From Desulfocapsa sulfexigens DSM 10523 (GTDB taxonomy: Bacteria > Desulfobacterota > Desulfobulbia > Desulfobulbales > Desulfocapsaceae), in the NCBI RefSeq assembly GCF_000341395.1, contig NC_020304.1, positions 1,920,001 through 1,952,000 on the forward strand: DNA of 32,000 nucleotides, read 5' to 3'. The notes below the pieces were generated by a model that had not been told where the DNA came from, ran no database searches, and was given only the letters and a program-made list of their open reading frames with translations. How positions within the stretch are numbered: position 1 is the stretch's first letter; each line of letters begins with the position of its first letter. A program made the position numbers and the translations under genes. Shown here piece after piece: positions 3,901-31,701 of the stretch.

Positions 3901-3906
3901 TATTCA

Positions 3907-9534: not shown

Positions 9535-9864
9535 TCAGATAATATCGTCAACAATAATCGTTTCTTTGCCGAGGCTTTGGCGTATCTGCTGGCGCTGTCG
9601 AAGTTTGACTTGAGCATCATGTGGAAGCTCCGTCAACATGATGATATTTTTATTTACCAGCAAATTGATGAGGTCTTCTAATACTCGCATTCCCCCTACA
9701 TCTGTTGATGCAAGGAGACGAATCAAGGAGTCGTTTGTTTTTTCATCTATTAGAAACTCGATAATTTCATCATCCACCGCTTCTTTCAGTTCCATTTCTG
9801 CTGTGTCGGCTTCACGTCGTATCGCAACGATTTTTCCTTTTTTACCTCTTTCCACATAAAACAT
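9535..9864 (-). CDS. Hypothetical small acidic protein, divergent from the T1SS operon
   Basis: 109-aa ORF with GGAG 8 nt upstream of the ATG. I recognise no family. Confidence 0.45.
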   Translation of the reverse strand: MFYVERGKKGKIVAIRREADTAEMELKEAVDDEIIEFLIDEKTNDSLIRLLASTDVGGMRVLEDLINLLVNKNIIMLTELPHDAQVKLRQRQQIRQSLGKETIIVDDII

Positions 9865-12340: not shown

Positions 12341-13746
12341 AAGAAAATTCTGAGATCTCAAAAAATCTGAAGACTTCTCACGGCAGGACCCCTCGCTCGG
12401 TGGAAAAGCAGAAAAAAGGCTTCTTTTTTCAACAACAGAACTCCGATGTTGATTTAATAACCGACATCCGCATGTCGCTCCTGGCTCAGTCTCCACGAGG
12501 TGGCAGTATTATCCTCTGGATAATAGTCATCGTGTTTTTTTGTGCTGTGGCCTGGGCATATGTGGCGGAAGTAGAGGAGGTAACCAGAGCAAGCGGAAGA
12601 GTTGTGCCTGCAAGGCAACTGCAGATCGTACAGAATCTTGAGGGCGGAATTCTCTCCGAGATTCTGGTGAATGTCGGTGATGTGGTGAAACAAGGTCAGC
12701 TCTTACTCCGTATTGACGAAAAGCGTTTTTCCGGACCGTACCGGGAAAGTCGATTTAATTATCTTGCGCTCAAAGCCCAGGTTGCACGATTACAGTCCGA
12801 GACATACTCCACACCGTTTGTGCTCCCGGAGGAAGTGATGGCTGAAAATCCTGAGGTAGGTAACCGGGAAAAGGAGTTATTTGAGTCACGAAAAAAGGAA
12901 CTTGCCCAAACGCTAGGGGTGCTGGAGGAACAAAGTCGGCAACGTGAACAGGAAATCGTTGAACTTGAGGCTAAGATTGCTGAGCTGTCACGGACGCGCT
13001 ATCTGCTTAAAAAGGAAATTAACATGACCCAACCTTTGGTAAAAGGTGGGGCTGTTTCGGAGGTGGAATTCCTGCGCCTGCAGCGTCAGGACAGTGAGAT
13101 GCAGGGAGATATCATGGCTTCACAGCTCGCTCTTCCCAGAGCAAAGTCGAGACTTCTGGAGGCGCAGAAAGGAATAACTGAGGCAAAGCTCAGGTTCTCC
13201 AATAACGCCAAAAAGGAACTCAATGATGCCTATGCAAAACTTGAGGGACTTTCAGCTACCACCGTTGCCTTGGCCGATCGTCTGGACAGGACGGCTGTAG
13301 TCTCACCTGTCAGGGGAATAGTGAATCAAATTTTTATTAATACTGTTGGTGGTGTCATTCAACCGGGTATGAACTTGATTGAAATTGTTCCATTGGAGGA
13401 TACTCTTCTGGTGGAAGCGAAGATCAAACCCTCGGATATCGCCTTTCTTAGCCCTAACCTGAAGGCCACTGTAAAGTTCACAGCCTATGATTTTACACTG
13501 TATGGTGGACTCGAAGCGAAAGTTGAGCATATCAGTGCTGATAGTATCGTCGATAAACAGGGAAACAGCTACTATCTGGTAAATGTCCGCACAACAAAAA
13601 ATTATCTTGGAACTAAAAATGCCCCCTTACCTATTATTCCCGGAATGGTGGCCTCTGTTGATATTCTGACCGGAAAAAAACGCGTCCTTACCTATTTGAT
13701 GAGGCCAATTCTTCGTGCTCAGAGCTTAGCTCTACGTGAGAGGTGA
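12337..13746 (+). CDS. HlyD family type I secretion periplasmic adaptor (LapC-like)
   Basis: ATGA overlap with the ABC gene. Single N-terminal TM 'IILWIIVIVFFCAVAWAYV', a long coiled-coil middle, and the C-terminal 'VDILTGKKRVLTYLMRPI' typical of HlyD/TIGR01843-type proteins. Confidence 0.9.
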   Translation: MKENSEISKNLKTSHGRTPRSVEKQKKGFFFQQQNSDVDLITDIRMSLLAQSPRGGSIILWIIVIVFFCAVAWAYVAEVEEVTRASGRVVPARQLQIVQNLEGGILSEILVNVGDVVKQGQLLLRIDEKRFSGPYRESRFNYLALKAQVARLQSETYSTPFVLPEEVMAENPEVGNREKELFESRKKELAQTLGVLEEQSRQREQEIVELEAKIAELSRTRYLLKKEINMTQPLVKGGAVSEVEFLRLQRQDSEMQGDIMASQLALPRAKSRLLEAQKGITEAKLRFSNNAKKELNDAYAKLEGLSATTVALADRLDRTAVVSPVRGIVNQIFINTVGGVIQPGMNLIEIVPLEDTLLVEAKIKPSDIAFLSPNLKATVKFTAYDFTLYGGLEAKVEHISADSIVDKQGNSYYLVNVRTTKNYLGTKNAPLPIIPGMVASVDILTGKKRVLTYLMRPILRAQSLALRER

Positions 13747-13869: not shown

Positions 13870-14478
13870 ATGACAATCGTGACCTGCAGTGCAAACGCAT
13901 CAACGCGAGAACGGTGGAGACAGATATTGCAGGGTGACCATCAGTTATTTGAGGTCTCTACCGTGGCGGAACTGAAAGACGTTGTTAAACATCAAGAGAT
14001 AGAACTCATACTTCTTCACCGCTCTATGGTTGATATGAATCTTATCTCCAGTATAACGGAATCACGATGTTTTGTCCTCTCTGATATCCCGGATGATAAT
14101 GAGGCAGTTCTGTTGCTCAAATCCGGTGCTGTGGGGTATGCGAATACGTATGTTTCTCCAGTTCGTCTTAAAGAGGCTGTTAATACAGCCATCAGCGGAA
14201 GGGTCTGGGTCGGGCAGAAACTGATGCAGAAAATCATTCGAGGCACCACTCAAGATATTGACCCAAAAAGTACGGAACCCCCTCCTGAACATAAACTTTC
14301 AGGCCGTGAATGGGAGGTTGCTTTGTTGGTCGGTCAAGGTATGTCAAATCTTGAAATCGCCGCCGAGTTGAATATCTCTGAGAGCACGGTGAAAGCACAT
14401 ATCGGCTCTATTTTTAAGAAAACAAATACCGAAAGCCGATTACAACTGGCACTGTATGTCAAGACACAAACTACCTAG
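13870..14478 (+). CDS. LuxR-family transcription regulator with an atypical (Asp-less) receiver-like domain
   Basis: C-terminal HTH 'LSGREWEVALLVGQGMSNLEIAAELNISESTVKAHIGSIFKK'. The N-terminal receiver-like fold has 'LILLHRSM' where 'LxLLDxxMP' is expected, and it lacks an N-terminal acidic pair. Confidence 0.75.
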   Translation: MTIVTCSANASTRERWRQILQGDHQLFEVSTVAELKDVVKHQEIELILLHRSMVDMNLISSITESRCFVLSDIPDDNEAVLLLKSGAVGYANTYVSPVRLKEAVNTAISGRVWVGQKLMQKIIRGTTQDIDPKSTEPPPEHKLSGREWEVALLVGQGMSNLEIAAELNISESTVKAHIGSIFKKTNTESRLQLALYVKTQTT

Positions 14479-14562: not shown

Positions 14563-16929
14563 ATGGGAATTACTACCTATCTTTTTCACAAATCGAATGG
14601 TTTGGAAAAACAGAGATTTAATATGTTTTTCCTGGATATGGGAGAAAATATCCATTTCCATTACCGGGACCTTAGAATTGAGCTTTCTGTTGGCGAATTC
14701 AAGGAACTGGCAGAACTCTTCAAACTCTACTCCCAGGATGTCCTCAATGAAATTGAGGCAGGATATAAAGATGGTGTTCTGGCGAATACAAATGAGGCTG
14801 GTACGCTCAAGACCTTTTGGGACAAGGAGAAAAAACTTACTTTTCCTGTGAAGTATAATGAACAGCAACTGGCCATTGAAGAGACCAAAGATGGTTTTCA
14901 TCTCCATATTAGAAACTATAAAATTCTCATGGGGAAAGACTCCTTTATTCTCCTTGTAAAGGCTATTGCTCCGATTTCTTCATTGTTGGAAAGTAATGAT
15001 CTGAAACGGGACCCTGTTCAATTGCTGGCAGAAAACGAACTTGGCACAAAACTAATTTCACGATTTCAGACAGAAGGACATGAGGAAATCGTAATTGAGG
15101 TTGATAAAACCTACCGTAACAAAGCAGGGCAGGTGCTTAAGGCGCTTGGCTTTATTCAAGGAGTGGTAGAAAATAGTAGGGTGGCATATAACAAAGACAG
15201 TTCAACTGTTGTTCTTGTACCTCCCGGTTACGCCCCACAAGCTGCCGATATGGTCAGCACCGATACGTCGCTGGATCTGCCGGCTTTTCTCGCCAGGTAT
15301 GGACATGACCTTGATACCACGGATCTTAATCAGCTTAAGCTTAAGATTCTCTCACTCTTGAAAATGGCCGAACAAGGTGGCATCAGACCTTTTCGTTTGC
15401 AGGATCTGTATATCAACAGAAGCTCGCTCAATCCGGCTGTTGATCTCTTTTGTCGCCTTGAGGGTATTGATCCCAAACAGGAAATTGATTCATTTAATAA
15501 ATTGCTCGGTACAAATAAATTATTCATGATCAAACCAGAAAAGGAGCTCTTTCCCCCCGAGAAGCAGGATCAGATTTTCGATGCTTTTTTTGACTTTGTT
15601 ATGCAAAAGCTTGCTCCTCATGAATGTGTGCGCAAAATATATGTCCTGGGTTCCTCAACGAATCGTCGATCCGGTTGTTATAAGGTACCCTTTGTTCATT
15701 TTGACTGGGCAAAGATCAACTCGGATTTTGACATCTATATCGAGCTGGATCCGGATTATGAGGGTACTCTTCCTGAGGAATGGGACAAGAAGTTTTATTG
15801 GGATCGTGCTGGTTGCGATTATTACCATTTTGGTGATGTCGGTGATGGAATGATATCTGAGTATGCTCAACGATATCCTGGTATCCGCTTTTATGAGCAG
15901 CTTGTTGAAGGCTATCTGTTTCATCCCTCGACAGGTGACAAATCCAAAAAGGATAAGTGGTTTGGTGAAGTAAAAGCTCGTTGTATTTTCTCACGAGACA
16001 GGATTGCCGAATGGGTGAATCAGAACTATGAAATCACAGTTCATGAGACGGAGCGGTTTAATGTAGCATCATTTAACCGAGTCTATCATATTTTTTCTCC
16101 TTCGGAAGAATATGTTCTAAAAGTATATGATTCCAAATACCTGAATAAGAAAAATAAAAAGAAGATCGCCTACGAGATTGGTGTTTTGGATTCATTGAAA
16201 GAGTCTGGTCTGGAAGTTGCTCTTCCGTTGAAAAATAAAGCAGGAAAATATATCAGTCAAAAAGATAAGGAGCAGGCAGTGCTCTTTACTTTTGTTCCTG
16301 GTAAATATGTGGCGAAACCGACTCTGGAAGAGAATATGCTTGCCGGGAATTTGCTGGCGCGTTTCCATAATGAGGCGAAGCGTTATAAAACAAAGTATGC
16401 GAAAGTGTACAGCAACAAACAGCTCCTCTTTTACTGGCTCGATTCCTGGCAGGAATACCATGATCAGGGAGGAATCGTAGGAACTGATATCTCTCTGGAT
16501 ATTCCGTACTACACTAAACGTCTGCGAAATTTCAATACTTTCCCGACTCACTGTCATGGCGATTTATCCATTATTAATTATCTCTTTCGCGATGGAAAAT
16601 GCTGGCTGATCGATTTCCAGAGTGTCGGTTATGGACCTGCTCTCATCGATTTGGCAAACGGAATGGTTGAATTTTCTGCCCAGAAAAGGGACTTTTATAT
16701 GGAGAATCTTGAATCCTTCAAAAAGGGTTATGAGAATGTTCGAAAACTATCACGCGCAGAGAACGATTTCCTTACTGATCTTTTAGTCATCCAAATTGCC
16801 GTCAGGCAGGCAAAGCTGTTACGTTTACACTATGGAGGGTTTGGCTATGAATTGAAAGAAGACAGGATCCTTGGATTGCGAATGGGTATCGAAAAATTAC
16901 TAGCTTTGACCGACTCTTGTGGGGAATGA
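14563..16929 (+). CDS. Multidomain protein: unknown N-terminal region, minimal nucleotidyltransferase-like domain, and APH/homoserine-kinase-II-like kinase domain
   Basis: 788 aa. Residues ~355-395 'KIYVLGSS...(22)...SDFDIYIELD' fit the pol-beta NTase G[SG]...DxD pattern. The C-terminus has the kinase catalytic loop 'HCHGDLSIINYLF' and 'WLIDFQ'. The N-terminus has an internal repeat ('NIHFHYRDLRIEL' / 'GFHLHIRNYKILM'). The start codon is uncertain. Confidence 0.65.
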   Translation: MGITTYLFHKSNGLEKQRFNMFFLDMGENIHFHYRDLRIELSVGEFKELAELFKLYSQDVLNEIEAGYKDGVLANTNEAGTLKTFWDKEKKLTFPVKYNEQQLAIEETKDGFHLHIRNYKILMGKDSFILLVKAIAPISSLLESNDLKRDPVQLLAENELGTKLISRFQTEGHEEIVIEVDKTYRNKAGQVLKALGFIQGVVENSRVAYNKDSSTVVLVPPGYAPQAADMVSTDTSLDLPAFLARYGHDLDTTDLNQLKLKILSLLKMAEQGGIRPFRLQDLYINRSSLNPAVDLFCRLEGIDPKQEIDSFNKLLGTNKLFMIKPEKELFPPEKQDQIFDAFFDFVMQKLAPHECVRKIYVLGSSTNRRSGCYKVPFVHFDWAKINSDFDIYIELDPDYEGTLPEEWDKKFYWDRAGCDYYHFGDVGDGMISEYAQRYPGIRFYEQLVEGYLFHPSTGDKSKKDKWFGEVKARCIFSRDRIAEWVNQNYEITVHETERFNVASFNRVYHIFSPSEEYVLKVYDSKYLNKKNKKKIAYEIGVLDSLKESGLEVALPLKNKAGKYISQKDKEQAVLFTFVPGKYVAKPTLEENMLAGNLLARFHNEAKRYKTKYAKVYSNKQLLFYWLDSWQEYHDQGGIVGTDISLDIPYYTKRLRNFNTFPTHCHGDLSIINYLFRDGKCWLIDFQSVGYGPALIDLANGMVEFSAQKRDFYMENLESFKKGYENVRKLSRAENDFLTDLLVIQIAVRQAKLLRLHYGGFGYELKEDRILGLRMGIEKLLALTDSCGE

Positions 16930-17093
16930 AGTATCTGAATGGAGATATTCTTTTTATTGTTGTTTGCGTCCTGGGAACGTATTGGAATATTGAATAATGG
17001 CGTGACTGCCCGATTAAAAGATACAGAAAGTATTCAACATTCGGCCAGTCTGTTATCGAGATTGTGCCAACGTGGAGTAGAGGTGTAGATCCA

Positions 17094-18686
17094 GTGAAGA
17101 GGTTACTCTCGTTACTTTTATTATTCTTGTGCTGCTGCAGTTCAGATGAAGCTGGTAATGACTCCCCATCCACCAGTGTTTCTCGCGAGGTGGATCTTTT
17201 CCCATCAACGCTTGTGGAAAGTTCTGGACTTTATGAGCGAGTGCTCAATTCTAAAATGGAACCCTCCCAGATTCGTTTTATGGCCAAAGATGGTCATACA
17301 CTTACAGCTTATACATATCGCGCCACAGAATTCTCTGTCAGCGATGGACCAATAGTCTTTATTATACATGGTGCTTCTAGAAATGCGATTGATTACCTGC
17401 GTAGATTTATGCCAATTGCTGAACGATACGGAGCCCTCGCAATAGCACCCGAGTTTCCTGAATCGATCTACGGTCCAGGTTCTGATCGCTTCACTCTTGC
17501 CGTCGGGAGTAGAAAGCCGCCCTATACTCGTACCTACAAAGCCAGAGAGTGGCGCACGCGTGATGACTATCTTTACAGTGAGATTGAACATCTGTTTGAA
17601 GCTGTCAAACGGGAATTAAACAGCGGAGAGCCAACCTATCGTATCTGGGGACACAGCGCCGGTGGGCAATTTGTTCATCGTCTGGTGACTTTTCGTTCCG
17701 ATGCCAGGGTTGCTTCGGCGGTTGCGGTTAACGCCGGTTTCTACACTTTGCCGGCTTACGGCAGCGGTTCTGATCCCAATTTCTTTATGCCCTATGGACT
17801 TCAGGGCACTCCATTAAATGCTTACGATGTCAAGCGGTTGCTTGAGGCTCCACTGGTGGTGATGGTGGGTGAGTTAGACACAAAGACTGGTAAAGAATCC
17901 AGGACCGTTCGCGATTCAAGGTATGCTAATTTTCAGGGGTTTAATAGACGGCAGCGAGCAGAGTTTTATTTTCGAATGGGTGAAAGGGAAGCGCGCCGCC
18001 TTGGCCTCGATTTTGGGTGGCGCTTTGCTGTGGTACCTGGGGCTGGACACAACTCCCGCAAGGTTGGCCCTTCAGCGGCTTGGTTTTTGTTTAATCCACC
18101 CGATGCTATTCCCTGTGTATCTACCCCCGCTGAGAATGCCAGAGGTCTGGTGATTAACGAAATTTATGGCGACCCAGCTGGTGGTGTCGCTGGAGATGCA
18201 AATAATGATGGTTTACGTGATGCACAAGAGGATGAGTTTGTTGAATTGGTTAACACCTCTGATCACGATATTTGTCTGAGTGGGTGGTACCTTGGCGATG
18301 CGTCTACCCCTGCGCGCCACCGCTTCCCCGTTGGCAGCCTCTTGCCCAAAGGAAAGGCGTTGGTAGTGTTTGGCGGGGGGGTTCCAACCGGGAAGTTTGG
18401 TGATGCTGAAATACAGACAGCAGTGTCGGCCGGTGAGCTGAATTTGAATAACGCTGGCGACATTCTGTCGCTGTCGGACTCGCACGGAAATTCGTATCAA
18501 CAGCTTTCCTGGGGTGATTGTGGTGGCAAGCAGTGTGCAGGAGAATACCTCTCTCATGCTATCAATAGCAACCAGTCTCTCAGTCGCTGGCCAGATGTAA
18601 ATGGTCCTTTTGTGCCCCATGGTAACATTTCAGGCGGTGCATTGTACTCACCCGGAACGAAGGTAGATGGGACATCTTTTGACTGA
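17094..18686 (+). CDS. Exported (probable lipo-)protein: alpha/beta-hydrolase (PHB-depolymerase/esterase-like) domain plus C-terminal lamin-tail domain (LTD)
   Basis: GTG 17094 gives 'MKRLLSLLLLFLCCCSSDE' (signal peptide with Cys cluster) with GAGG upstream. The ORF is open from 17064. Shows 'IVFIIHGASRN' and the nucleophile elbow 'WGHSAGGQF'. C-terminal 'LVINEIYGDPAG...DEFVELVN' is LTD-like. Confidence 0.65.
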   Translation: MKRLLSLLLLFLCCCSSDEAGNDSPSTSVSREVDLFPSTLVESSGLYERVLNSKMEPSQIRFMAKDGHTLTAYTYRATEFSVSDGPIVFIIHGASRNAIDYLRRFMPIAERYGALAIAPEFPESIYGPGSDRFTLAVGSRKPPYTRTYKAREWRTRDDYLYSEIEHLFEAVKRELNSGEPTYRIWGHSAGGQFVHRLVTFRSDARVASAVAVNAGFYTLPAYGSGSDPNFFMPYGLQGTPLNAYDVKRLLEAPLVVMVGELDTKTGKESRTVRDSRYANFQGFNRRQRAEFYFRMGEREARRLGLDFGWRFAVVPGAGHNSRKVGPSAAWFLFNPPDAIPCVSTPAENARGLVINEIYGDPAGGVAGDANNDGLRDAQEDEFVELVNTSDHDICLSGWYLGDASTPARHRFPVGSLLPKGKALVVFGGGVPTGKFGDAEIQTAVSAGELNLNNAGDILSLSDSHGNSYQQLSWGDCGGKQCAGEYLSHAINSNQSLSRWPDVNGPFVPHGNISGGALYSPGTKVDGTSFD

Positions 18687-18823
18687 CCATCATCAACTAT
18701 AGCAGTTGACGGTATCGCCAAAAGATAAGGAGTAAGAAGCAGCATTTCTTTTTTAACGCTTCCGGGGGAATACAATTTAGCTTGAAACGCGTAATATACT
18801 GCCGTTGAGGTAATTGGGTAAAG

Positions 18824-19852
18824 ATGATTAGTGCAAGAGGAAATCGAACCAAAATAGCAGTGTTTAACGATGAAATTTATGATTCCAGTCTTGAGCACGA
18901 TCTGATAACAGAAGGTTTTTTTGCTGTGGCAATCAAGGATCCAAAACTTTCTGATATAAATGGACACCCTGATTTTATTTTGGCACCGGAATGGATTCGG
19001 TGGCTGATGCCAACACCAGAAACATCTGAGATGTGGATTACGAATCTTGGATCCAGCCATGATCGATACAAATTAAGGAAAAAACTGAAAACCAGTCATG
19101 CTCAAAGCGGTGACGTTCGTGTTGATATAGCTCCTTTGTCTGTGGATGATTATAAGATCTGGTATGAGAGTTTATACCTCCCTGAAATAGGAGAAAAAGC
19201 TGGAGCAATTTTGTTTTGGCCTGCGCCCGAATCCTTGTCAAAAAAAGTGAGAGTGAGACCATCAGGAGAGGTCGCTAATTATTTCAGGATTTTTATGTAT
19301 CATAAGGATGGGAGTTTCATTGGTGGCTCACTCTGGTTTATTTCTCATCCCCAAAGCATTTTGATTATTGCAGCTACAGCCTTTAAGCAGAAGGCCCGTG
19401 CAAAATACGAATTATCAATTCGTGGAATGGACGAGTCTCTAACTTTTGCCATCTCGCATGGCTTGAAGTGGATGAGTTACGGTACCGATCCGAACCTTTA
19501 TGGTGTCGATTTCAGTCTTGGTTTGCAAATGTTTAAAGCAAGCATCGGCATGAAACCCGTCTTTCCAAGATATGGATCCTTTCAGCTTATTAAAGTTATA
19601 GACAAAACCTTGAGCCGAATTGATTCTGCAAATAGCGAAAAGCCTTCTGTTCTCATTTTTGCAATTGGCGGAAATAATGTATCAGACAGAATTCTGAACT
19701 ATCAACACCTGCCACCACTGACCCCAAAGAGAAACTTTGATCTATTGTGGAATCGAGATTTTGGTCTAACGCCCGTTCGGTTTGTGGTCCATCCTCAAAC
19801 TCCCGCTGTTAAAGTTCCCAATGGGATGATTCTTCAGGATATTATTTTATAG
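18824..19852 (+). CDS. Hypothetical protein, tandem paralog 1 (possible FemAB/GNAT-like acyl- or aminoacyl-transferase fold)
   Basis: 342-aa ORF. The C-terminal half 'GLKWMSYGTDPNLYGVDFSLGLQMFKASIGMKP' resembles the '...FK..fG..P' tail of FemAB/CelD-type (Acetyltransf_6) proteins. The functional call is weak. Confidence 0.4.
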   Translation: MISARGNRTKIAVFNDEIYDSSLEHDLITEGFFAVAIKDPKLSDINGHPDFILAPEWIRWLMPTPETSEMWITNLGSSHDRYKLRKKLKTSHAQSGDVRVDIAPLSVDDYKIWYESLYLPEIGEKAGAILFWPAPESLSKKVRVRPSGEVANYFRIFMYHKDGSFIGGSLWFISHPQSILIIAATAFKQKARAKYELSIRGMDESLTFAISHGLKWMSYGTDPNLYGVDFSLGLQMFKASIGMKPVFPRYGSFQLIKVIDKTLSRIDSANSEKPSVLIFAIGGNNVSDRILNYQHLPPLTPKRNFDLLWNRDFGLTPVRFVVHPQTPAVKVPNGMILQDIIL

Positions 19853-19884
19853 ATGTTTACTGCTGTTGAGGTAATTGAATCAAG

Positions 19885-20913
19885 ATGATTATTGCAAGAG
19901 GAAACAGAACTAAAATAGCAGTGTTTCGCGATGAAAATTATGATTCCAACCTTGATCACAATTTGATAACAGATGGCTTTTTTGCTGTGGCAATCAAGGA
20001 TCCAAAACTTTCTGATATAAATGGACACCCGGATTTTATTTTGGCACCAGAATGGATTCGGTGGCTGATGCCAACACCAGAAACGTCTGAGATGTGGCTC
20101 ACGAGTCTTGGATCCAGCCACGATCGATACAAGTTAAGGAAAAAACTGAAAGCCAGTCATGCTCAAAGCAGTGACATTAGCGTCGAGATAGCTCCTTTAT
20201 CTGTAAATGATTACAAAATCTGGTATGAGAAGTTGTATCTCACTGAAATTGGGGGAAAAGAAGGTGCAATTCTGTTTTGGCCAAAGCCAGAAGCCTTATC
20301 AAAAAAAGTGACAGTGACACCATCAGGAGAGGTCGCTGATTTTTTTCGGATCTTTATGTATCACAAGGACGGAGGTTTTATTGGTGGAGCTCTTTGGTCT
20401 ATTTCTCATAGCGAAAACAGTTTGACTACAAGAGCTGCAGCTTTTGAGAAAAAGGCCCGCACAAAATACGAATTAGCGGTTCGCGGAATGGAAGAGGCTC
20501 TATCTTTTGCCATCTCACAAGGGTTGAAGTGGATGAGTTATGGTACCGATCCAAACCTCTATGGTGTCGATTTTAGTCTTGGTTTGCAAAGGTTTAAAGC
20601 AAGTATCGGCATGAAACCTGTCCTGGCCAGAGTCGGATCCATTCGGCTCATTAAGATCCTGAATAAAAATTTAAGCCAGATTCATGCGGTTGATGGGGAA
20701 AAGCCATCCACTCTCATATTTGCACTCGGTGGAAACGACGTGTCGAAGAGAATTATGGCCTATCACGATCTGCCACCACGAAAAAAAAGAAGAAACATGG
20801 ATCTTATGTGGAATCAGGATATTGGCCTGACTCCTGTCCGTTTTGTGGCCCATCCTCAAACTCCCGTTGTTAATGTGCCCAAAGGGATGATACTTCAGGA
20901 CATTCTCCTTTAG
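19885..20913 (+). CDS. Hypothetical protein, tandem paralog 2 (same family as 18824-19852)
   Basis: 342 aa, collinear without indels with paralog 1, at roughly three-quarters identity by eye. Long near-identical DNA stretches, for example around 'AVAIKDPKLSDINGHPDFILAPEWIRWLMPTPETSEMW'. Confidence 0.4.
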   Translation: MIIARGNRTKIAVFRDENYDSNLDHNLITDGFFAVAIKDPKLSDINGHPDFILAPEWIRWLMPTPETSEMWLTSLGSSHDRYKLRKKLKASHAQSSDISVEIAPLSVNDYKIWYEKLYLTEIGGKEGAILFWPKPEALSKKVTVTPSGEVADFFRIFMYHKDGGFIGGALWSISHSENSLTTRAAAFEKKARTKYELAVRGMEEALSFAISQGLKWMSYGTDPNLYGVDFSLGLQRFKASIGMKPVLARVGSIRLIKILNKNLSQIHAVDGEKPSTLIFALGGNDVSKRIMAYHDLPPRKKRRNMDLMWNQDIGLTPVRFVAHPQTPVVNVPKGMILQDILL

Positions 20914-21246
20914 ATGACACAGCATGGACAGTGTTAATGATCTCAATTCCTTTTTTGATAAAATGCAGCCCTGAATTGAAGATCTGATCTCCGGGCCAAC
21001 ACATGGAGAGATAAAAGGATTCCTGATTACCACTGATCCTCAGCTTACCCGCCTGAGGAGGAGTTGTTTCGTGTTGATTATATGGGCATCTGCGGCCTGG
21101 ACGGCCGCAGCAGAGCCCCCAGGGATGGGTTTATGGCGTCTCATATAATCGACACGGAACAGCTCCGGGTTGCAAAGCTGAGTTTCGATGGTACTCAGGA
21201 AAGGATTTATAATACTGAATTTAATAATAATGGCAGAGGATAATTA

Positions 21247-22164
21247 ATGGATCAGGAAAAGACAGGTGCTTTGAGTGGACTGAGACACTTTGGCCTGACT
21301 GACTTTCAGCTCTATAAGGAAGCATTAGCTCAAGTAAACAGAATTTGCTGGCATCAATACTTCCCCTACCTGTATTTTCGATATGGAGATTTACTGATTT
21401 CCGAGATAGATGGTTCTGTTTGTCTTTTTTACAAGCAGAATCGAGCGAACAGGGATCCAAAACTTTACTTATATTTTCTCCCTATGCCCATGAATGAGAA
21501 TGTTCTCAAACTTTGCCTGGAGAGAGTAAGAACATTTAATAATACGAAAAGGGCCGTAATTTATCGAGTGGATGAGCAAGATATCGAAAAACTTGAACAT
21601 CTGGGGACTGATGTGAAAACCTTCCCCTTGGAGCGGGAATACGTCTATGATCCTAAGAACTACCATTCTCTGTCAGGAACCAAAAAACATAAAATACGAC
21701 AAGACGTCGCGAGGATCAGGGGCATGGATGGTGTGGAAGTCAGGGCCTTTGAAGAAGGGGATGTCAAGGGCTGTATTGCTTTAATGGACGAATGGGCAGT
21801 TATACAACAGAACAAGTATGAAGGACGGGTTGCACCTCGAGGCTTTGCCCGAAGATGTGTACGCAACAGCACTCTTTTTGAAAAAAAGGATTTGTTTGGG
21901 CTGGTTGTTCTCATAGATGGAACAATTCGCTCTGTCGGGTTTGCTGGTGAAATCAGACCCGGACTGGCGAATCTGTTTATAACCTATTCCGACCACAGGT
22001 ATTACGGATTAAATAGATTTTTGTTTTATCATTTGATGTTACAACTGGATACTTATGAACTTGTGAATTATGCAGGTGCCTCGACCCCGGGCCTGGAATT
22101 TGCGAAAGAGTCGCTCCGCCCGGTTTTAAAACATGGTTCATATAGAGTTCATGTGATCAAATAG
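21247..22164 (+). CDS. DUF2156 / LPG_synthase_C-like protein (soluble homolog of the MprF aminoacyl-tRNA-dependent transferase domain)
   Basis: 305 aa with no TM segments. The family-typical block is 'EREYVYDPKNYHSLSGTKKHKIRQDVARI', followed by a GNAT-like C-terminal half. Recognised from memory of the family pattern. Confidence 0.6.
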   Translation: MDQEKTGALSGLRHFGLTDFQLYKEALAQVNRICWHQYFPYLYFRYGDLLISEIDGSVCLFYKQNRANRDPKLYLYFLPMPMNENVLKLCLERVRTFNNTKRAVIYRVDEQDIEKLEHLGTDVKTFPLEREYVYDPKNYHSLSGTKKHKIRQDVARIRGMDGVEVRAFEEGDVKGCIALMDEWAVIQQNKYEGRVAPRGFARRCVRNSTLFEKKDLFGLVVLIDGTIRSVGFAGEIRPGLANLFITYSDHRYYGLNRFLFYHLMLQLDTYELVNYAGASTPGLEFAKESLRPVLKHGSYRVHVIK

Positions 22165-22217
22165 TTTTCTTACAAGGGGCTCCTTCAACAACCTGTTCTA
22201 ATGTGGCATGGTAACTT

Positions 22218-24875
22218 TTACAGAGGCAGTTTGATGTAAAATCGTGTTTCCTCATTGCTCTCTTCCTTGTCGCATTTGACGTCATTGGAGAAACGAACAG
22301 AATCAGAATAACGACAACTCAATAATGCGACCACTTCTTTAAACTCTCTCTCTGTTACAAAACGTGTTTGATAATCTGTTTTACGGTTATCTGTGACAAT
22401 TGGATATAAATGTAAACTTTTATGGAATGCTCCGGAGAGTGTGTCGACACGCAGCTTCGCTATAGCGCTGTAAGGAGGCGCATCGAGCTTGCCATATCGC
22501 CCCTTGGAATTAAACATAAAATTACCGATACTATAAATAAGCCACTGATTGTCATGCTTTTCAATCTCTTGTATCATATGTGCCCCATGCCCGAGAATCA
22601 GATCCGCCCCCTCTTTTAACATGCGCTCCGCCAGTCTTGCCTGGCGATCGCTACGCCATTTGTAATTTGGCCCCCAATGGGGGAACAATACAACAAAGGT
22701 ATTAGCATATTCTTTTCTGACACGCTTAATCTCATTGCGTACACGTTTAAACGAAATCGGGTTCAAACCCCGATCTTTTTCTGAGGCATACATTTTGAAT
22801 GAATCCTTCTTACGGGAGGGACCGGCATACATTGATATCATTGCCAATGTAAATACTTTTCCATCTATTTGACTCTGTGCAATAAATGCTTCACCGGCTT
22901 CGTCAATAGTTGCACCACCACCAAAATATGTAATTCCAGCTTCTTCCAAACTGTGTAATGTCTGGTAGAAACCTTCTTCCCCAAAATCAAACATATGATT
23001 ATTGGCGAGTCCTACCGTACTGATATTATTTGCAAGTAAATGACGAGGTGTTTGTTTTATATCCCCCCAGTGTACCCATGACTTTTGGCCTGCAAACGGA
23101 GAAACTTTCAAGTCGGTAAGAGGTGTTTCGAGATTTGCAACAACCAGATCGGCCTCTTCCAGCATATTCCGGACCTTGGCCAGCGGGGCATCGTACCCTC
23201 TTGCTTTAAGAATGTTTTCCTCCCCATAGCTTTCGTACTGAGCTTGATAATTTTCTCCAAAAGCTGTATCGCCTACAAAGACAACCTCAAACGCGGAAGG
23301 GGTATGCAATTCATTTATTGTCCGGAATGGGGGCGTTCTCTTCTTTTGTTGCTGTTTATATTGACTTTGTGAGCGTTTTTCCTGTGCTTCATTCATCACC
23401 AAACTTTTTTTCCTGATGTTTTTACCTGTCTTTTTAATGGCAGATAAAATCATCTCGAGATTGGCAGTGGAGCGCCTCGACCCCTTCACCCAGAGAATAT
23501 CGCTACCGTGCATTTCCTTCACTACCGCCTTAGCAATATGCTCAGGATCCTCACTGTGTTCTCCTTCCATCGTTTTAGGAAGAGCGTCCCACAAGCCCTC
23601 CAGATCACGGCCTACGGTGAACAACACATTGACCTGGGCATCTATGACATGCGGTGCTAAAGCCGCATGGAGCTGCGCTGAAGTATCGCCAAGCTCTTTT
23701 ATCTCACCCATGATGGCAATACGTCTACCGCCTTTACGTGGTTTTTTAAGTCCCAGTACTGCTAATCCTGCCTCTACAGAGGCAGGATTAGCACTGAAGG
23801 TGTCATCGATGAGTGTAATATCTCCACTGGCCAGCTCAACTGTATATTTTTCGTTATGACGGCTGAGAACGGGTGCCTTTTTAATATCTTCAGCAGCCTT
23901 TATCCAGTCTCCGCCGGCAGCATGAACGGCAGCCAAGGCACCGAGACAATTCATGATACTATGCGTACCGGGCTGGTTCACATGAAATGATATCTCTTGT
24001 TTATGGAAAATAACCCTTACATCACTTGACTCACTATGCAAAGAATAGTCGATTATTTTCATGTCGGCATCTTCATGTGTGCCGAAGGTGATAATGTTCT
24101 TGACGTTCGCGGCTTTTGCATTGGTCAACTGCCGATCAAACAACGTAGCATCATGGTTAAGCACGACAATGCCTTCCGGTTGTAAGGATTTGAATAGCAG
24201 GCACTTCTGGTCGGTTAACTTTTCCAAAGTCCCGTAAAATTGCAGATGATCAGAATGGATATTGGTGATCATGGCTATGTCTGGTCTGATAATGCTAGCC
24301 TTCTTCTCAGTCACATTTGGCAGATCAACGGAAAACTCATAGACACCAAAACGCATATCAGGTGGTGTCTCTGCGAGCATCAGCGGTACCCCCGGTCCGT
24401 GGTTGTAGTTCTTACGGCTTCCCTTTGTCGTACCCTGCTGACACAATAAGAAACGGGTAATCTCTTTTGTCGTTGATTTCCCGGCACTGCCTGTAATTGC
24501 TACGACCGTGCCACGTATCCTGTTACGTGCCGCCTCTCCCAGTGCGTCGAGCGCCTCCCTGGTATTTTTAACCAGAAGCACCGGGTTGTCGCTTCTGTAG
24601 TTTGCAGGTAATTGCCCCGCAACAACCACTGCCGCATGTTTATTGTCGAAAAATGTCTGAATGATTTCGTTGGTATTTTTATATGCAGATGAACGCCAAG
24701 TCTTCGGTTCCGTGGTAATTACCACATCCCCTGGCTCAACCTGTCCTGCATAATAGTTGACTCCTGTAACATGCAAGTCTTCGGGAACCTGTCCAACCCA
24801 TTGACCACCCATAATTGACTGCAGTTCCTGTGCGCTCCATAGTACTGACTTTGTTGCATCTGTGTCAGGTCGCAT
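22218..24875 (-). CDS. Fusion protein: MurF-like Mur ligase (N-terminal ~490 aa) plus CapA/PgsA (PGA_cap, metallophosphatase-like) domain (C-terminal ~360 aa)
   Basis: Mur ligase P-loop 'VAITGSAGKSTTKE', with 'MITNIHSDHL' and 'LIDDTFSANPASV' (compare MurF 'DDSYNANP'). A Lys/Gln-rich linker follows. CapA-type motifs are 'VVFVGDTAFGENY', 'GLANNHMFDFG' and 'LFPHWGPNY'. No TM segment is seen. Confidence 0.8.
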   Translation of the reverse strand: MRPDTDATKSVLWSAQELQSIMGGQWVGQVPEDLHVTGVNYYAGQVEPGDVVITTEPKTWRSSAYKNTNEIIQTFFDNKHAAVVVAGQLPANYRSDNPVLLVKNTREALDALGEAARNRIRGTVVAITGSAGKSTTKEITRFLLCQQGTTKGSRKNYNHGPGVPLMLAETPPDMRFGVYEFSVDLPNVTEKKASIIRPDIAMITNIHSDHLQFYGTLEKLTDQKCLLFKSLQPEGIVVLNHDATLFDRQLTNAKAANVKNIITFGTHEDADMKIIDYSLHSESSDVRVIFHKQEISFHVNQPGTHSIMNCLGALAAVHAAGGDWIKAAEDIKKAPVLSRHNEKYTVELASGDITLIDDTFSANPASVEAGLAVLGLKKPRKGGRRIAIMGEIKELGDTSAQLHAALAPHVIDAQVNVLFTVGRDLEGLWDALPKTMEGEHSEDPEHIAKAVVKEMHGSDILWVKGSRRSTANLEMILSAIKKTGKNIRKKSLVMNEAQEKRSQSQYKQQQKKRTPPFRTINELHTPSAFEVVFVGDTAFGENYQAQYESYGEENILKARGYDAPLAKVRNMLEEADLVVANLETPLTDLKVSPFAGQKSWVHWGDIKQTPRHLLANNISTVGLANNHMFDFGEEGFYQTLHSLEEAGITYFGGGATIDEAGEAFIAQSQIDGKVFTLAMISMYAGPSRKKDSFKMYASEKDRGLNPISFKRVRNEIKRVRKEYANTFVVLFPHWGPNYKWRSDRQARLAERMLKEGADLILGHGAHMIQEIEKHDNQWLIYSIGNFMFNSKGRYGKLDAPPYSAIAKLRVDTLSGAFHKSLHLYPIVTDNRKTDYQTRFVTEREFKEVVALLSCRYSDSVRFSNDVKCDKEESNEETRFYIKLPL

Positions 24876-24937
24876 TAATCCGATCCTATTTTTTAGCGTT
24901 CGAAATCAATCAGTATTGTTTGATGAATTGACGAAAC

Positions 24938-25930
24938 TTACAACTCGAGACCAAGTCGAGAAAAATGTAAGAATGAGGAAATGTTGTGCTGAATATAATC
25001 AATTCTAACTTCATTCTTACGCCGATCATGGCCTCCCCTGACAAAAGAACCATCTGGGAGGCGGAAACCCAACTGTTTGTTTAGGTTGTATTTGATCTGT
25101 TCAATGCACCTTTCACATAACGTTTTATCATCGATAGTATCTGGTCGTTTCAGACGTAAAAAAGCCAGCAGACCTTCTGATCGGCAGGCTATCGGGGTAC
25201 TTCTTTCCCATGAGAGGTATTCGGGATTGTCGAGTATATGGAGTACTATTTTTTCGGCATGGTGATAGTAGAGAGAAGACACTTCATAATTTGACAGGAG
25301 CTCAAGAAAATAAAGCATCCAGTGAGATTGTTCTTTCACCCCATAATCCTCGGGCGCGAGTTCATTCTCAATTTTCCGCACGGCATCATACCAATACTTC
25401 TGTTGTGTTAGCCTGTATAGGGCCACCAGCGCAAATAGTGCTTCACCGGTATAATACATCGAGTGAAATTTGGATATTTTTCCTGACTTAAAATATCGTT
25501 TATGAACTAACCCGTTGTTCTCCATCCGTTGATCTACCATAAACTGTGCAAGTCGCTCAGCAATAGTCAAGAGGAAAGGATCCTGAGTTGTTTCGAATAA
25601 AGAGACCAGAGCCAGGGTGGAAAGGGCATTTCCCCCAAGCTTGATGGTATTGTTTTCACAGATACAAGCGTTGTTGTAGCTACGGTAAAATCTCAAATAG
25701 GTGTCAAGGAGATAATGTGTAGCTTGACGACAACAGTCTAAAATTTTTTTATCAGAAACATCACGATAAACGTCAAGCATTGCCCAGACAGCTCCTGCAT
25801 GACGGAGGACATTGTAACCTTTTAGAGGGCGGGCCTCCTGTGAATCATACCTGTATTTAAAGCTGCCATTTTTCTGAATCAAGTTTGCAAGGCATGCCGC
25901 TCCGGTATGTGCAATCTCAAGTGTATCCAT
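24938..25930 (-). CDS. Hypothetical protein, possibly an (alpha/alpha)-toroid repeat fold
   Basis: 330-aa ORF 62 nt upstream of the Mur-CapA gene on the same strand. Recurrent helix-pair motifs ('LRHAGAVWAMLDVY', 'GGNALSTLALVSLFE', 'YYTGEALFALVALYR') resemble prenyltransferase, LanC or glycoside-hydrolase toroids. The fold guess is weak. Confidence 0.35.
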   Translation of the reverse strand: MDTLEIAHTGAACLANLIQKNGSFKYRYDSQEARPLKGYNVLRHAGAVWAMLDVYRDVSDKKILDCCRQATHYLLDTYLRFYRSYNNACICENNTIKLGGNALSTLALVSLFETTQDPFLLTIAERLAQFMVDQRMENNGLVHKRYFKSGKISKFHSMYYTGEALFALVALYRLTQQKYWYDAVRKIENELAPEDYGVKEQSHWMLYFLELLSNYEVSSLYYHHAEKIVLHILDNPEYLSWERSTPIACRSEGLLAFLRLKRPDTIDDKTLCERCIEQIKYNLNKQLGFRLPDGSFVRGGHDRRKNEVRIDYIQHNISSFLHFSRLGLEL

Positions 25931-26046: not shown

Positions 26047-26259
26047 TTATTTTCTCGGTTCCATTAATGTGAGAATGACACTGGTCCGGTCTTCTGGGTT
26101 AGGCATACCTCCTGGGTTGAACCATCTGTCCAGCAACAGGTAAGGGCCTCTGTCTCCCTTTAGAATCGCTCCCACATTCTGCCACCTGGTCTTCTCGTTA
26201 CCTTCATGGTCTTCGTAAGTACCAAGCGGAATTGCAACATCATACATTTTCTTGGACAT
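26047..26259 (-). CDS. Small conserved-looking hypothetical protein (70 aa)
   Basis: GGAG 8 nt upstream of the ATG. 'GNEKTRWQNVGAILKGDRGPYLLLDRWFNPGG' looks like a folded small protein. I recognise no family. Confidence 0.45.
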   Translation of the reverse strand: MSKKMYDVAIPLGTYEDHEGNEKTRWQNVGAILKGDRGPYLLLDRWFNPGGMPNPEDRTSVILTLMEPRK

Positions 26260-26502
26260 TCCCGTATCTCCTTTGAGAATAGTGTTTGTTTAGACTGGAA
26301 GCTGTTGAGATTAAAAGCCTGTTACAGCTTAAACATACTTAAACCATCTCAAAAATAAGTTTTTTTATCAACCTTTTACGAAAAAAATATTTACTCAGTT
26401 GATAAATGCTGGACTCCCGTTTAGCCATGAGAATTACTCTGTCCTGAACGCATCATTTGCACAGCTTTCTTTTCGATATTCCATGAGGCTAATGTTGTGC
26501 CT

Positions 26503-26548
26503 CAAAAAAGAAAAAGCGTGGATAAGTTTTTTCAAGACTTACCCACGC
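26503..26548 (-). terminator. Rho-independent terminator of the poly-Asp protein gene
   Basis: On the minus strand: GCGUGGGUAAGU-CUUGAAAAA-ACUUAUCCACGC (12-bp stem, one G.U) followed by UUUUUCUUUUUU. It begins ~36 nt after the TAG stop. Confidence 0.75.
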
Positions 26549-26583
26549 CTCTGGGTCAAGCAAATGCAAACGGCGAGACTATA

Positions 26584-28248
<1,665 letters not shown>

Positions 28249-30834: not shown

Positions 30835-31701
30835 TTATTGTATACTGGCAGGCATTCTCTCAAGCAGGTCATTCCATAATTTGAGTCTGTCACTTTTTCC
30901 CACCAGGTCACCTCTGCCTCGCTCTTTTGCCAGCCACAGTCCAGCACCATTGAAACTGTATACAGGAAGCAGGTCTGATCTTTGTGTTGCTGGCTTAATG
31001 GCATTGATAAGATTATCGAGAACCAAAGGCACAGCAGTGGGTGTTTTATAATAGGTAAGCACCATATGACTTTGATTTAATTTCCAGGCCTTAACATACG
31101 TCAGGGTAAGTTTTTTCTCAGGAACCCCCAACATCTTCAGAGTAAAATATTTTGAAAGGGCAAAATCTTCGCAGTCGCCGCCATCACTTGCAAGAAACTC
31201 TACCGGAGTGGCCCAATAATCTTTTTTTGACCAATGTATTGCATCACTGACAAAATTGAGTTGATTAAAGAATCTGTTTACTTTTTCCAGCTTTTCAATA
31301 TCGGTACGACTCGTATCTTCACGGACAAACTGCTGCCAGGCCAGAAGTCTTTTTCTTGCATCAACACCATATTTATCCTCAGCAGTATCGAGTAAAGATG
31401 AATCAAGTGTGAAAATTTCGTTGGCTGAGGCAATCTGGCCTGCAAAAAAAAAGAGTAAGAACACAAATGCGAAGGGTAGTAGAGTGTTGTTGGCAAATTT
31501 GAGGACGGAGCTACTGCGGGAAAGGACTAGTTGAATAATTGTTAATGGTGCGTTAACGGAATTTAATACAATTGCGCCATATCGATTGCTGGATCGGCTC
31601 TGCAACAAACCGTTGCCATCAATCATGAGTAAATCCCTGAAGTATAACGGGATACAATAAATACGGTCCTCAAACTGGCCATCCATTGTATCCCGCTTCA
31701 A
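30835..31701 (-). CDS. lapG: LapG-like periplasmic transglutaminase-like cysteine protease (BTLCP, peptidase C93)
   Basis: 'DGGDCEDFALSKYFTLKMLGV' holds the catalytic Cys, 'QSHMVLTYY' the His and 'LVLDNL' the Asp. Signal-like 'LLPFAFVFLLFFFAGQIASA'. The start is uncertain: TTG 31701, ATG 31686 or ATG 31626. Confidence 0.85.
   Translation of the reverse strand: MKRDTMDGQFEDRIYCIPLYFRDLLMIDGNGLLQSRSSNRYGAIVLNSVNAPLTIIQLVLSRSSSVLKFANNTLLPFAFVFLLFFFAGQIASANEIFTLDSSLLDTAEDKYGVDARKRLLAWQQFVREDTSRTDIEKLEKVNRFFNQLNFVSDAIHWSKKDYWATPVEFLASDGGDCEDFALSKYFTLKMLGVPEKKLTLTYVKAWKLNQSHMVLTYYKTPTAVPLVLDNLINAIKPATQRSDLLPVYSFNGAGLWLAKERGRGDLVGKSDRLKLWNDLLERMPASIQ

Follow-up and report, generated by a model that had tools for sequence, protein, structure and literature searches.

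We analysed a window of 32,000 nucleotides (the whole stretch of DNA considered here) from the genome of the sulfur-disproportionating bacterium Desulfocapsa sulfexigens DSM 10523 (contig NC_020304.1, positions 1,920,001 to 1,952,000), using a listing of its open reading frames (ORFs) and scans of these against Pfam and NCBIfam. The window holds a Lap-type adhesin locus into which an 11-kb enzyme cassette is inserted. The enzyme block spans positions 14563-25930 and adjoins a gene encoding an adhesin with a long unbroken run of aspartates. An earlier, sequence-only reading had proposed that the enzymes of this block tailor the side chains of the ribosomal poly-Asp. Our survey of relatives demonstrates that the association between such enzyme blocks and poly-Asp genes is not due to chance, and comparisons of the individual proteins indicate what kinds of chemistry might be involved.

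On the plus strand, genes for an ABC transporter, a membrane-fusion protein (MFP), a GerE-type regulator, a kinase protein of 788 amino acids (aa), a 540-aa hydrolase, two 342-aa paralogs and a DUF2156 protein follow one another. On the minus strand the order of transcription is a TolC-like protein, LapG, LapD, the poly-Asp gene, a 70-aa ORF, an (alpha/alpha)6 toroid protein and a MurF/PGA_cap fusion. The toroid and the PahZ1-like hydrolase lie within the block and were not part of the earlier reading, even though the hydrolase is the gene most directly linked to poly-aspartate. The features are as follows, with loci of relatives cited by number (L001 and so on).

9535-9864, minus strand: 109-aa ORF with no Pfam match, divergent from the ABC transporter gene of the type I secretion system (T1SS) and upstream of it
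10172-12340, plus strand: LapB-like T1SS ABC transporter, C39-like domain at the N-terminus (Peptidase_C39, ABC_membrane, ABC_tran), syntenic in relatives
12337-13746, plus strand: T1SS membrane-fusion protein, HlyD/LapC-like (HlyD_3, 6e-19)
13870-14478, plus strand: GerE/LuxR-type regulator (GerE, 1e-17), position kept in L002-5, L010, L013 and L014
14563-16929, plus strand: 788-aa protein with a C-terminal APH-type kinase domain (APH, 5.5e-13 at residues 505-714)
17064-18686, plus strand: PahZ1-like serine hydrolase with a lamin-tail domain (LTD), 540 aa (structure 6ve6, 1e-36; LTD, 7.6e-18)
18824-19852, plus strand: dupli-GNAT (Fem/MprF-fold) paralog 1, 342 aa, identified by an AlphaFold2 (AF2) model and Foldseek
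19885-20913, plus strand: dupli-GNAT paralog 2, 342 aa, 76% identical to paralog 1 by alignment
21247-22164, plus strand: soluble DUF2156/LPG_synthase_C protein, 305 aa (PF09924, 1.1e-14)
22218-24875, minus strand: MurF-like ligase fused to PGA_cap, 885 aa (Pfam/NCBIfam)
24938-25930, minus strand: (alpha/alpha)6 toroid, 330 aa, cytoplasmic (AF2 model)
26050-26259, minus strand: conserved 70-aa ORF between the poly-Asp and toroid genes, just outside the block
26584-28248, minus strand: LapA-type poly-Asp adhesin, 554 aa (retention module, PTTT/PTET linker, 256 Asp, short acidic C-terminus)
28861-30819, minus strand: LapD-like cyclic di-GMP (c-di-GMP) receptor (LapD_MoxY_N, GGDEF, EAL)
30835-31701, minus strand: LapG-like BTLCP protease (Peptidase_C93, 1.4e-15)
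31725-32000, minus strand: TolC/OEP-like outer-membrane factor of which the window includes just the C-terminal part, clustering with OEP proteins of L005, L006 and L019

The adhesin beside the enzyme block does carry 256 consecutive Asp, as first read, in one unbroken run at 26713-27480, and 292 of its 554 residues are Asp. The Thr-rich stalk, described earlier as about 40 Thr in PTTT repeats, is present as a PTTT/PTET-type linker, with a count of 45 Thr in 71 aa. Within the Asp run (D256), 148 GAT and 108 GAC codons are interleaved and no stretch of one codon exceeds four; because of this mixture the tract is not a microsatellite, and the interleaving suggests selection against slippage. Long ORFs at 26497-27820 (plus strand) and 26556-27482 (minus strand), which would encode poly-Ser, poly-Ile/Val or poly-Met/Thr, were rejected as frame artefacts of the GAY repeat. 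The adhesin reading frame itself is secure, since it encodes a LapA retention module at the N-terminus (NF033682, 63 bits with the cutoff at 50) and a C-terminus conserved in relatives (...DDHLVEPPTETF, kept in L009-L014). The protein has no Cys at all.

A TAAG site for LapG can be read in the retention module, and with LapG, LapD, a C39-like ABC transporter and an MFP all encoded nearby, the locus has the components expected of a Lap-type system. It shares the retention module, TAAG site, C39-like ABC transporter, MFP, TolC-like protein, BTLCP protease and LapD-type receptor with the described system (LapA/LapB/LapC/LapE, LapG and LapD, including the Dvh variant of sulfate reducers; PMC10990149, PMC13090378). 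In contrast to that system, a homopolymeric Asp tract takes the place of Ig-like or RTX repeats in the passenger, and the locus contains the 11-kb enzyme cassette. The adhesin is the presumed substrate of the enzyme block.

Asp-run length varies widely among close relatives, from D86 to D621, and L085 has both D123 and D264. Short-read contigs of relatives frequently stop within the run. In several poly-Asp proteins, among them those of L003 (16353-17267), L016 (5933-8752) and L033 (1752-4472), the run is followed directly by a domain with the pattern LPHGISYVAF(K/R)LxDGxV(I/V)KV(Q/E)G...TTDGWPTN, which the window adhesin lacks. The 70-aa ORF at 26050-26259 is 77-96% conserved in ten related loci, including one in Microbulbifer elongatus (L033, 9747-9956), and matches no family in Pfam or NCBIfam; its product could be a small factor for handling or recognition of poly-Asp.

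Co-occurrence across genomes, which the sequence-only reading had put forward as a check, was examined by a profile-guided scan for the toroid with one genome per species, yielding 70 loci and 1.03 Mb of sequence. These loci come from Desulfobulbales, Sulfuricellaceae, Luminiphilus/HTCC2080, Microbulbifer, several Alphaproteobacteria, Verrucomicrobiia, Bacillota and a Mycobacterium with a distant homolog. Runs of at least 8 Asp occur in 36 of the 70 loci and runs of at least 17 in 27, the longest reaching 621. All of them lie 0.2-6.3 kb from the toroid gene, and none was found elsewhere in the 1.03 Mb. The toroid is thus the most consistent partner of poly-Asp genes. Many of the toroid loci with no run are short contigs or contigs that end beside the toroid. 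Moreover, every relative contig of the 342-aa and MurF-CapA families that is long enough repeats the synteny with a poly-Asp gene. For example, L001 and L002-L004 reproduce the window synteny including the poly-Asp gene, L015 has D108 and L016 has D621. Several contigs of this group end inside the Asp run, as is to be expected from assembly failure.

The poly-Asp proteins at these loci are of many kinds: T1SS adhesins with a retention module, repeat adhesins of more than 2300 aa, Sec-signal proteins with (GD)n or Asp runs, Cys-flanked proteins with D50-116, LPXTG-anchored proteins, and alkaliphile lipoproteins of the type (D8-MMN)n. Because they are otherwise unrelated and are exported by T1SS, Sec, lipoprotein or LPXTG routes, the Asp tract itself is their common denominator. 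L008 provides an independent substrate, in that a MurF-CapA protein (47% identical to that of the window) and a toroid lie beside an unrelated 93-aa Sec-signal protein with a C-terminal poly-Asp tail. The ligase-CapA protein accompanies poly-Asp in this locus and in L015, L016, L032, L037-41, L052, L053 and L055. Together, the recurrent synteny, the separate substrate in L008 and the statistics of the 70 loci support the earlier inference that the enzymes are functionally tied to ribosomal poly-Asp. The data disfavor mere adjacency, whereby the enzymes would be hitch-hiking in a mobile adhesin island with no functional relation to the adhesin. The variation of cassette content between close relatives is what such an island might produce, but recurrence in Desulfobacterota, Gamma- and Alphaproteobacteria, Verrucomicrobiota and Bacillota with different poly-Asp proteins, and the multiple domain fusions described below, make this explanation very improbable.

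A converse scan of metagenome contigs for (GAY)30 gave 120 stretches, almost all of them pure (GAT)n microsatellites on short or low-coding contigs that are probably eukaryotic. Because it was swamped by these microsatellites, the scan gives no frequency for bacterial poly-Asp genes that lack a toroid. Four cases could be used: L085, nearly identical to the window gene, in a locus that stops short of the toroid side; L096, with a toroid; L117, where no toroid accompanies a Sec-signal D50 protein within 6 kb on one side; and L191, the acidic tail of NusA, which is unrelated. A side observation concerns Alkalicoccus and Salisediminibacterium (L048, L051, L056, L059, L064 and L072), which encode small lipoproteins (LAGCG lipobox) of (D7-9-MMN)n repeats adjoining toroid homologs that are extended at the N-terminus by a domain of about 240 aa. 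These lipoproteins may supply negative surface charge in alkaliphiles.

The toroid protein had no solid match to a known family and none to the PDB by sequence, and only fold comparison was informative. Its AF2 model (predicted local distance difference test, pLDDT, 97; predicted template-modelling score, pTM, 0.94) is an (alpha/alpha)6 barrel, with AGE-type sugar epimerases/isomerases, GH88 and GH76 as nearest folds (TM-score up to 0.74 at 10-15% identity). In the family alignment the motif TPIACRSEG is invariant, as are several His, Tyr and Arg residues. The family is large, with 526 word-index matches and, among 1.84 billion representatives, 903 clusters at E<=1e-30. One view of the toroid is that it handles poly-Asp without catalysis, perhaps together with the 70-aa protein, and would shield the polyanion, aid its translation or direct it to export, the ligases and transferases being loosely linked genes with some other envelope function. 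Long acidic runs destabilise translating ribosomes, many Arg, Lys and His residues of the toroid are invariant, and the Luminiphilus/HTCC2080 loci combine a toroid and a poly-Asp adhesin with no ligase or CapA within 10 kb. However, the invariant Cys-Arg-x-Glu motif and the paired His and Tyr residues look catalytic, the toroid has repeatedly been fused to CapA or ligase domains, which points to one pathway, and the ligase-CapA protein tracks poly-Asp in the series of loci listed above that begins with L008. We therefore consider a pure handling role quite unlikely.

The fusions came to light when single-linkage clustering of ORFs put the toroid, DUF2156, 342-aa and ligase families together in a single component. 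Domain-level labelling and Pfam scans of the fusion proteins traced this to real multi-domain fusions. The toroid is joined to MurF and CapA in L020, occurs as toroid-CapA-MurF in P0220 and as toroid-CapA in P0179, and forms a CapA-YheCD ATP-grasp-toroid protein in P0276 and L007. MurF-CapA-MurF-CapA proteins are encoded in L037, L038 and L040, and up to four serial Mur modules in L016. The 342-aa and DUF2156 proteins are fused in L020, and in L009 and L013 an ATP-grasp is joined to two copies of DUF2156. DUF2156 is found only in loci with a ligase or CapA, the lone exception being a truncated contig. Both the DUF2156-ATP-grasp fusions and this distribution fit the earlier proposal that the transferases act after the ligase.

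The analogy to cyanophycin synthesis that was first proposed has been strengthened by the same survey. Loci with no MurF (Microbulbifer, Sedimentibacter, Tissierella and Syntrophomonas) have instead an ATP-grasp of the CphA G-domain type, free or fused to CapA (about 1e-59 to NF010623). A metagenome-assembled genome of Sulfuricellaceae (L026, 688-7455, plus strand) encodes a 2256-aa protein consisting of a full-length CphA-like module followed by MurF, MurF and CapA; the module matches NF010623 over its full length at 4e-168, with 561 bits falling below the cutoff of 877. L026 may represent a form of the system whose backbone is made without ribosomes.

Toroids 81-86% identical to that of the window are found in L009, L010, L013, L014 and L016, where the cassette between toroid and kinase is nevertheless entirely different. 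The cassette thus behaves as a hypervariable tailoring island, a pattern expected for the tailoring of a surface-exposed polymer. Variants seen include the double DUF2156-ATP-grasp fusion, arrays of 3-4 Mur modules, and a variant MurF accompanied by a methyltransferase and a Mac-1-like protein. In the Lap-type cluster of L005 (11760-14602), a TPR/GT41 glycosyltransferase-like protein and a VanY D-Ala-D-Ala carboxypeptidase lie beside 342-aa and DUF2156 fragments and Mur ligases; a (DT)n-repeat ORF is situated at the edge of this locus (about 20400-20766), and the assembly looks frameshifted.

Scans with Pfam and NCBIfam support the MurF-like ligase fused to CapA, the soluble DUF2156 protein and the kinase domain that had been recognized from the sequence alone. 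The 885-aa ligase matches Mur_ligase_M (6.5e-38), Mur_ligase_C (7e-12), NF010693 (1e-99) and PGA_cap (6e-53). It has the three-domain Mur architecture, with Mur_ligase_M, Mur_ligase_C and the P-loop motif TGSAGKSTT, and keeps the MurF N-terminal domain, since its alignment to MurF models and structures begins at residue 8-11. It falls short of the curated MurF cutoffs (TIGR01143, 258.5 bits against 288.6; NF010693, 334 against 544), and genuine MurF and MurE-F proteins are just 23-34% identical to it. The MurF-CapA fusion family is rare, with 11 clusters and 3 stand-alone relatives.

Two known systems are closest to this protein. The first is CphA1, composed of N, ATP-grasp G and Mur-like M domains, with which the window has in common a poly-Asp backbone and a Mur-fold ligase of the kind that adds an amino acid to Asp beta-carboxylates. 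The window ligase reaches 33.5 bits against a cutoff of 850 for the CphA1 model TIGR02068 and has no ATP-grasp, so it is not a CphA1. Unlike the backbone made by CphA1, that of the window is gene-encoded, ribosomal and part of an exported adhesin; its ligase is derived from MurF, nothing indicates Arg as the added residue, and PGA_cap, the toroid and the tRNA-dependent transferases are additional. The second is PgsB-PgsC-PgsA(-PgsE)/CapBCA, which likewise pairs a Mur-family amide ligase with a CapA/PgsA (PGA_cap) protein. Here the pair is fused and soluble, the ligase is MurF-like rather than PgsB-like, and the neighbor is ribosomal poly-Asp rather than a free poly-Glu capsule. No PgsC-, PgsE- or PgsB-like protein was found among the annotated window ORFs (most of the long non-overlapping ones) or the recurrent families in 78 loci, a search in which small ORFs were not covered exhaustively.

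The resemblance to PgsB and PgsA would fit the alternative already named in the earlier reading, in which the enzymes build a product of their own outside the ribosome. This poly-amino-acid or muropeptide-like polymer, akin to poly-gamma-glutamate or cyanophycin, would be co-produced with the adhesin and interact with it or with bound cations. The retained MurF N-terminal domain and the VanY of the L005 cluster would suit such a product. So would the Sulfuricellaceae loci L021, L026 and L030 and also L007, in which the enzymes are present (in L026 with the CphA-like synthetase) and no acidic protein was found in the fetched flanks, which for Sulfuricellaceae were 10 kb on each side. However, the clusters show no recurrent PgsC/PgsE-like or other dedicated polymer exporter, signal peptides are absent from the enzymes, and the poly-Asp protein is the sole exported macromolecule common to the loci, adjoining the enzymes across unrelated architectures and export routes. 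A separate polymer thus seems unlikely.

The two 342-aa paralogs, one of which is UWK_01731 (100% identical), match nothing in Pfam or NCBIfam and belong to a rare family (19 clusters among 5.8 billion proteins). Their earlier description as Fem/GNAT-like finds support in structure instead. The AF2 model (pLDDT 75, pTM 0.70) has Sbb17/Sba18, MprF, aminoacyl-phosphatidylglycerol synthase (aaPGS), FemX and FemA as its top Foldseek matches (E 1e-8 to 1e-6, probability 1.0, TM-score only 0.4-0.5). On the basis of this modelled fold, the paralogs are putative aminoacyl-tRNA-dependent transferases. The same putative function applies to the DUF2156 protein, which matches PF09924 with 54.6 bits against a cutoff of 27.5 and has no membrane domain. 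Both kinds of protein resemble FemXAB, the MprF C-terminal domain (aaPGS) and Sbb17/Sba18, with the dupli-GNAT fold seen in the 342-aa paralogs and the DUF2156 domain present in the 305-aa protein. In contrast to FemXAB and MprF, the window enzymes have neither a Pfam FemAB match nor a membrane domain, and their domains are fused to or clustered with carboxylate-amine ligases.

The kinase domain of the 788-aa protein carries the motif HGDLSIIN, and the protein is conserved in Desulfobulbales and Sulfuricellaceae loci. Its N-terminal part of about 500 aa had been labelled a nucleotidyltransferase (NTase), a label that found no support: residues 1-496 gave no sequence match in Pfam, NCBIfam or PDB, and the GS...DFD motif was recognized by eye only. 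A lanthipeptide-like scheme, with the APH kinase acting on the Thr-rich linker and the toroid as a LanC, was also considered and rejected, as the poly-Asp protein has no Cys and the structural neighbors of the toroid are AGE, GH88 and GH76 proteins, not LanC.

Among solved structures, the 540-aa hydrolase, an alpha/beta-hydrolase, is most similar to poly(aspartic acid) hydrolase-1 (6ve6, 1e-36), followed by 9o7u (7e-32). In the alignment to 6ve6 the lipase box GHSAGGQFVHR is identical and the Asp (elDT), His (GHn) and Arg (qgfnR) are conserved, so that a Ser-Asp-His triad with its serine in a G-x-S-x-G box and an equivalent of R246 are all present. R246 of PahZ1KT-1 is needed for degradation of poly-Asp, as demonstrated by mutagenesis (PMC13017698). 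The window protein shares the lipase box, Asp, His and substrate-positioning Arg with PahZ1 (6ve6, 9o7u; PMC13017698, PMC4456602), whereas it has an additional lamin-tail domain and a lipoprotein-like signal and lacks the His pair of PahZ1KT-1; its activity is a prediction. Only the hydrolase has a signal peptide, which is absent from the ligase, CapA, toroid and tRNA-dependent enzymes; modification in the cytoplasm, then export, then trimming outside is therefore a fitting order. In many related loci the exported hydrolase is a beta-lactamase-fold serine hydrolase instead of a PahZ1-like protein.

The PGA_cap domain of the window fusion scores 180.3 bits with PF09587, where the cutoff is 27. 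Its family includes MslH, an epimerase that requires metal and acts on a ribosomal peptide, at the C-terminal Trp of a lasso peptide (PMC8179263, PMC10406935). MslH has the dyads H88/D91 and H295/D11 and the calcium ligands E44, N87, H259 and H261. Five of these residues (E44, N87, H88, D91 and H295) have an identical counterpart in the alignment with the window domain; D11, H259 and H261 fall outside the aligned stretches, and the equivalog model gives 47.6 bits against a cutoff of 700. The proposed role of the window CapA domain would be like that of MslH in being exerted by a PGA_cap fold on a ribosomal peptide, with a different substrate and different partner proteins.

It is conceivable that the ligase, PGA_cap and toroid alter the poly-Asp backbone and add no branches, converting L-Asp to D-Asp and/or alpha- to beta-linkages by way of activated beta-carboxyl and succinimide intermediates. 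The product would be a protease-resistant D/L, alpha/beta poly-aspartate like thermal poly(aspartic acid), which is a known PahZ1 substrate. The five residues identical to those of MslH, the AGE-type epimerases and isomerases that give the best TM-scores for the toroid, and the exported hydrolases of the clusters, PahZ1-like or of beta-lactamase fold, are all compatible with this scenario. PahZ1 enzymes cleave beta-Asp linkages, and the beta-lactamase-fold family includes D-stereospecific peptidases. Nevertheless, conversion of the backbone would not account for up to four serial Mur modules or for tandem MurF-CapA-MurF-CapA proteins, nor for aminoacyl-tRNA-dependent transferases, which need an amine or hydroxyl acceptor, and the fold likeness of the toroid is at only 10-15% identity. 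Both this conversion and its proposed product therefore strike us as improbable.

We consider the chances about even that the enzymes covalently modify the poly-Asp tract. Branching at the beta-carboxyl specifically is a more tentative idea and on balance doubtful. Covalent tailoring is the reading that we favor, and in it the block 14563-25930, with its toroid and the 70-aa ORF, would be a tailoring cassette for the poly-Asp of the neighboring adhesin, which would be made on ribosomes in the cytoplasm. The toroid would recognize poly-Asp and work with the fused ligase-PGA_cap. The MurF-like domain would use ATP to convert Asp carboxylates, most likely the beta-carboxylates, to acyl phosphates and couple an amino acid or a short peptide (dipeptide) to them, giving cyanophycin-like isopeptide branches. 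The PGA_cap domain might epimerise a residue in the manner of MslH, and the two dupli-GNAT paralogs and the DUF2156 protein could then extend the new amino groups using aminoacyl-tRNA. As the most speculative step, the APH-type kinase might phosphorylate a hydroxyl, either of Thr in the PT linker or of a branch residue. By homology to Lap systems, the protein would be exported C-terminus first through the LapB/LapC/TolC T1SS, held at the surface by its retention module and released by LapG under the control of LapD and c-di-GMP. Outside the cell, the PahZ1-like lipoprotein may cut beta-aspartyl amide bonds to trim, unmask or turn over the polymer.

This scheme draws on gene content, folds, conservation of catalytic residues, linkage across phyla and domain fusions, which were observed directly, and borrows each chemical step, as well as the nature of the added residues, from the chemistry of related families (Mur ligases and the CphA M domain, MslH, Fem/MprF and PahZ1). 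As regards the original suggestion that the ligase amidates Asp beta-carboxylates, the linkage to poly-Asp has held up, and the amidation itself we still infer. The concern that T1SS export of a branched chain would be sterically problematic now appears weak, as poly-Asp proteins beside these enzymes use T1SS, Sec/lipoprotein and sortase routes. HlyA, for example, leaves via T1SS after acylation of lysines in the cytoplasm.

Several points weigh against covalent tailoring. The case is assembled from genomic context, folds and residue conservation. The locus counts are not phylogenetically independent, as many loci are related by descent. The Luminiphilus/HTCC2080 loci mean that branching is not obligatory for poly-Asp proteins, because no ligase or CapA lies within 10 kb there, and the four loci with the enzymes and no acidic protein in the fetched flanks, together with the CphA-like fusion, lend some weight to a non-ribosomal or separate polymer. 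The MurF N-terminal domain binds the UDP (uridine diphosphate) moiety in MurF, and its retention could mean a nucleotide-linked substrate rather than a protein. The modelled toroid fold, resembling sugar epimerases and glycosidases, would not be obviously suited to a peptide. Finally, LpqC (3d0k, function unknown) is nearly as similar to the hydrolase as PahZ1 is and has the same checked PahZ1 residues.

In its boldest form, the proposal is that an exported ribosomal poly-Asp would serve, in several phyla, as the template for a cyanophycin-like, branched and partly D-configured polyamide, made in the cytoplasm by the toroid/PGA_cap/ligase triad and aminoacyl-tRNA transferases, and that this polyamide would be the natural substrate so far missing for PahZ1-type poly(aspartic acid) hydrolases. 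This form of the proposal is somewhat unlikely.

By analogy, the system is nearest in its working to cyanophycin synthesis and PgsB/PgsA, with elements of MslH, Fem and Lap, and is a member of none of them. It falls outside the known families because its proteins score below the curated cutoffs or the defining components are missing. Another parallel is offered by the tubulin glutamylases and glycylases (TTLL) and RimK, which are amino-acid ligases acting on acidic protein tracts, and YheC/D-TTL-like ATP-grasps occur in related clusters. Those enzymes, however, act on short Glu-rich tails of intracellular proteins and have no toroid, PGA_cap, tRNA-dependent enzymes or export. The arrangement would therefore combine known kinds of chemistry in a new way, with a ribosomal backbone and non-ribosomal ligases. 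Our literature searches on poly-aspartate, cyanophycin, CapA and T1SS found no description of poly-Asp proteins with dedicated enzymes.

Should the tract be modified, the system would join two hitherto separate fields, ribosomal protein synthesis and the ATP-dependent synthesis of poly-amino acids such as cyanophycin and poly-gamma-glutamate. It would then represent a new protein modification on surface adhesins (a new class of modification if branched polymers are formed), give a function to a large uncharacterised (alpha/alpha)6 family, and account for the natural existence of enzymes that degrade "synthetic" poly(aspartic acid). Gene-encoded, length-defined and decorated poly-Asp scaffolds would also be relevant to biomaterials, antiscalants and biomineralisation. 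In a sulfur-disproportionating bacterium, polyanionic adhesins may serve attachment to minerals, metals or sulfur. Even the genetic association alone offers a testable system in a cultured and sequenced strain.

Two further features of the window lie away from the enzyme block. The 109-aa ORF at 9535-9864 (minus strand) has a homolog at the equivalent position in L002-L005. At 3337-4797 (plus strand), about 22 kb from the poly-Asp gene, EF-P is followed by a 296-aa protein similar to class-II aminoacyl-tRNA synthetases (EpmA/PoxA-like), a pair that is probably ordinary housekeeping.

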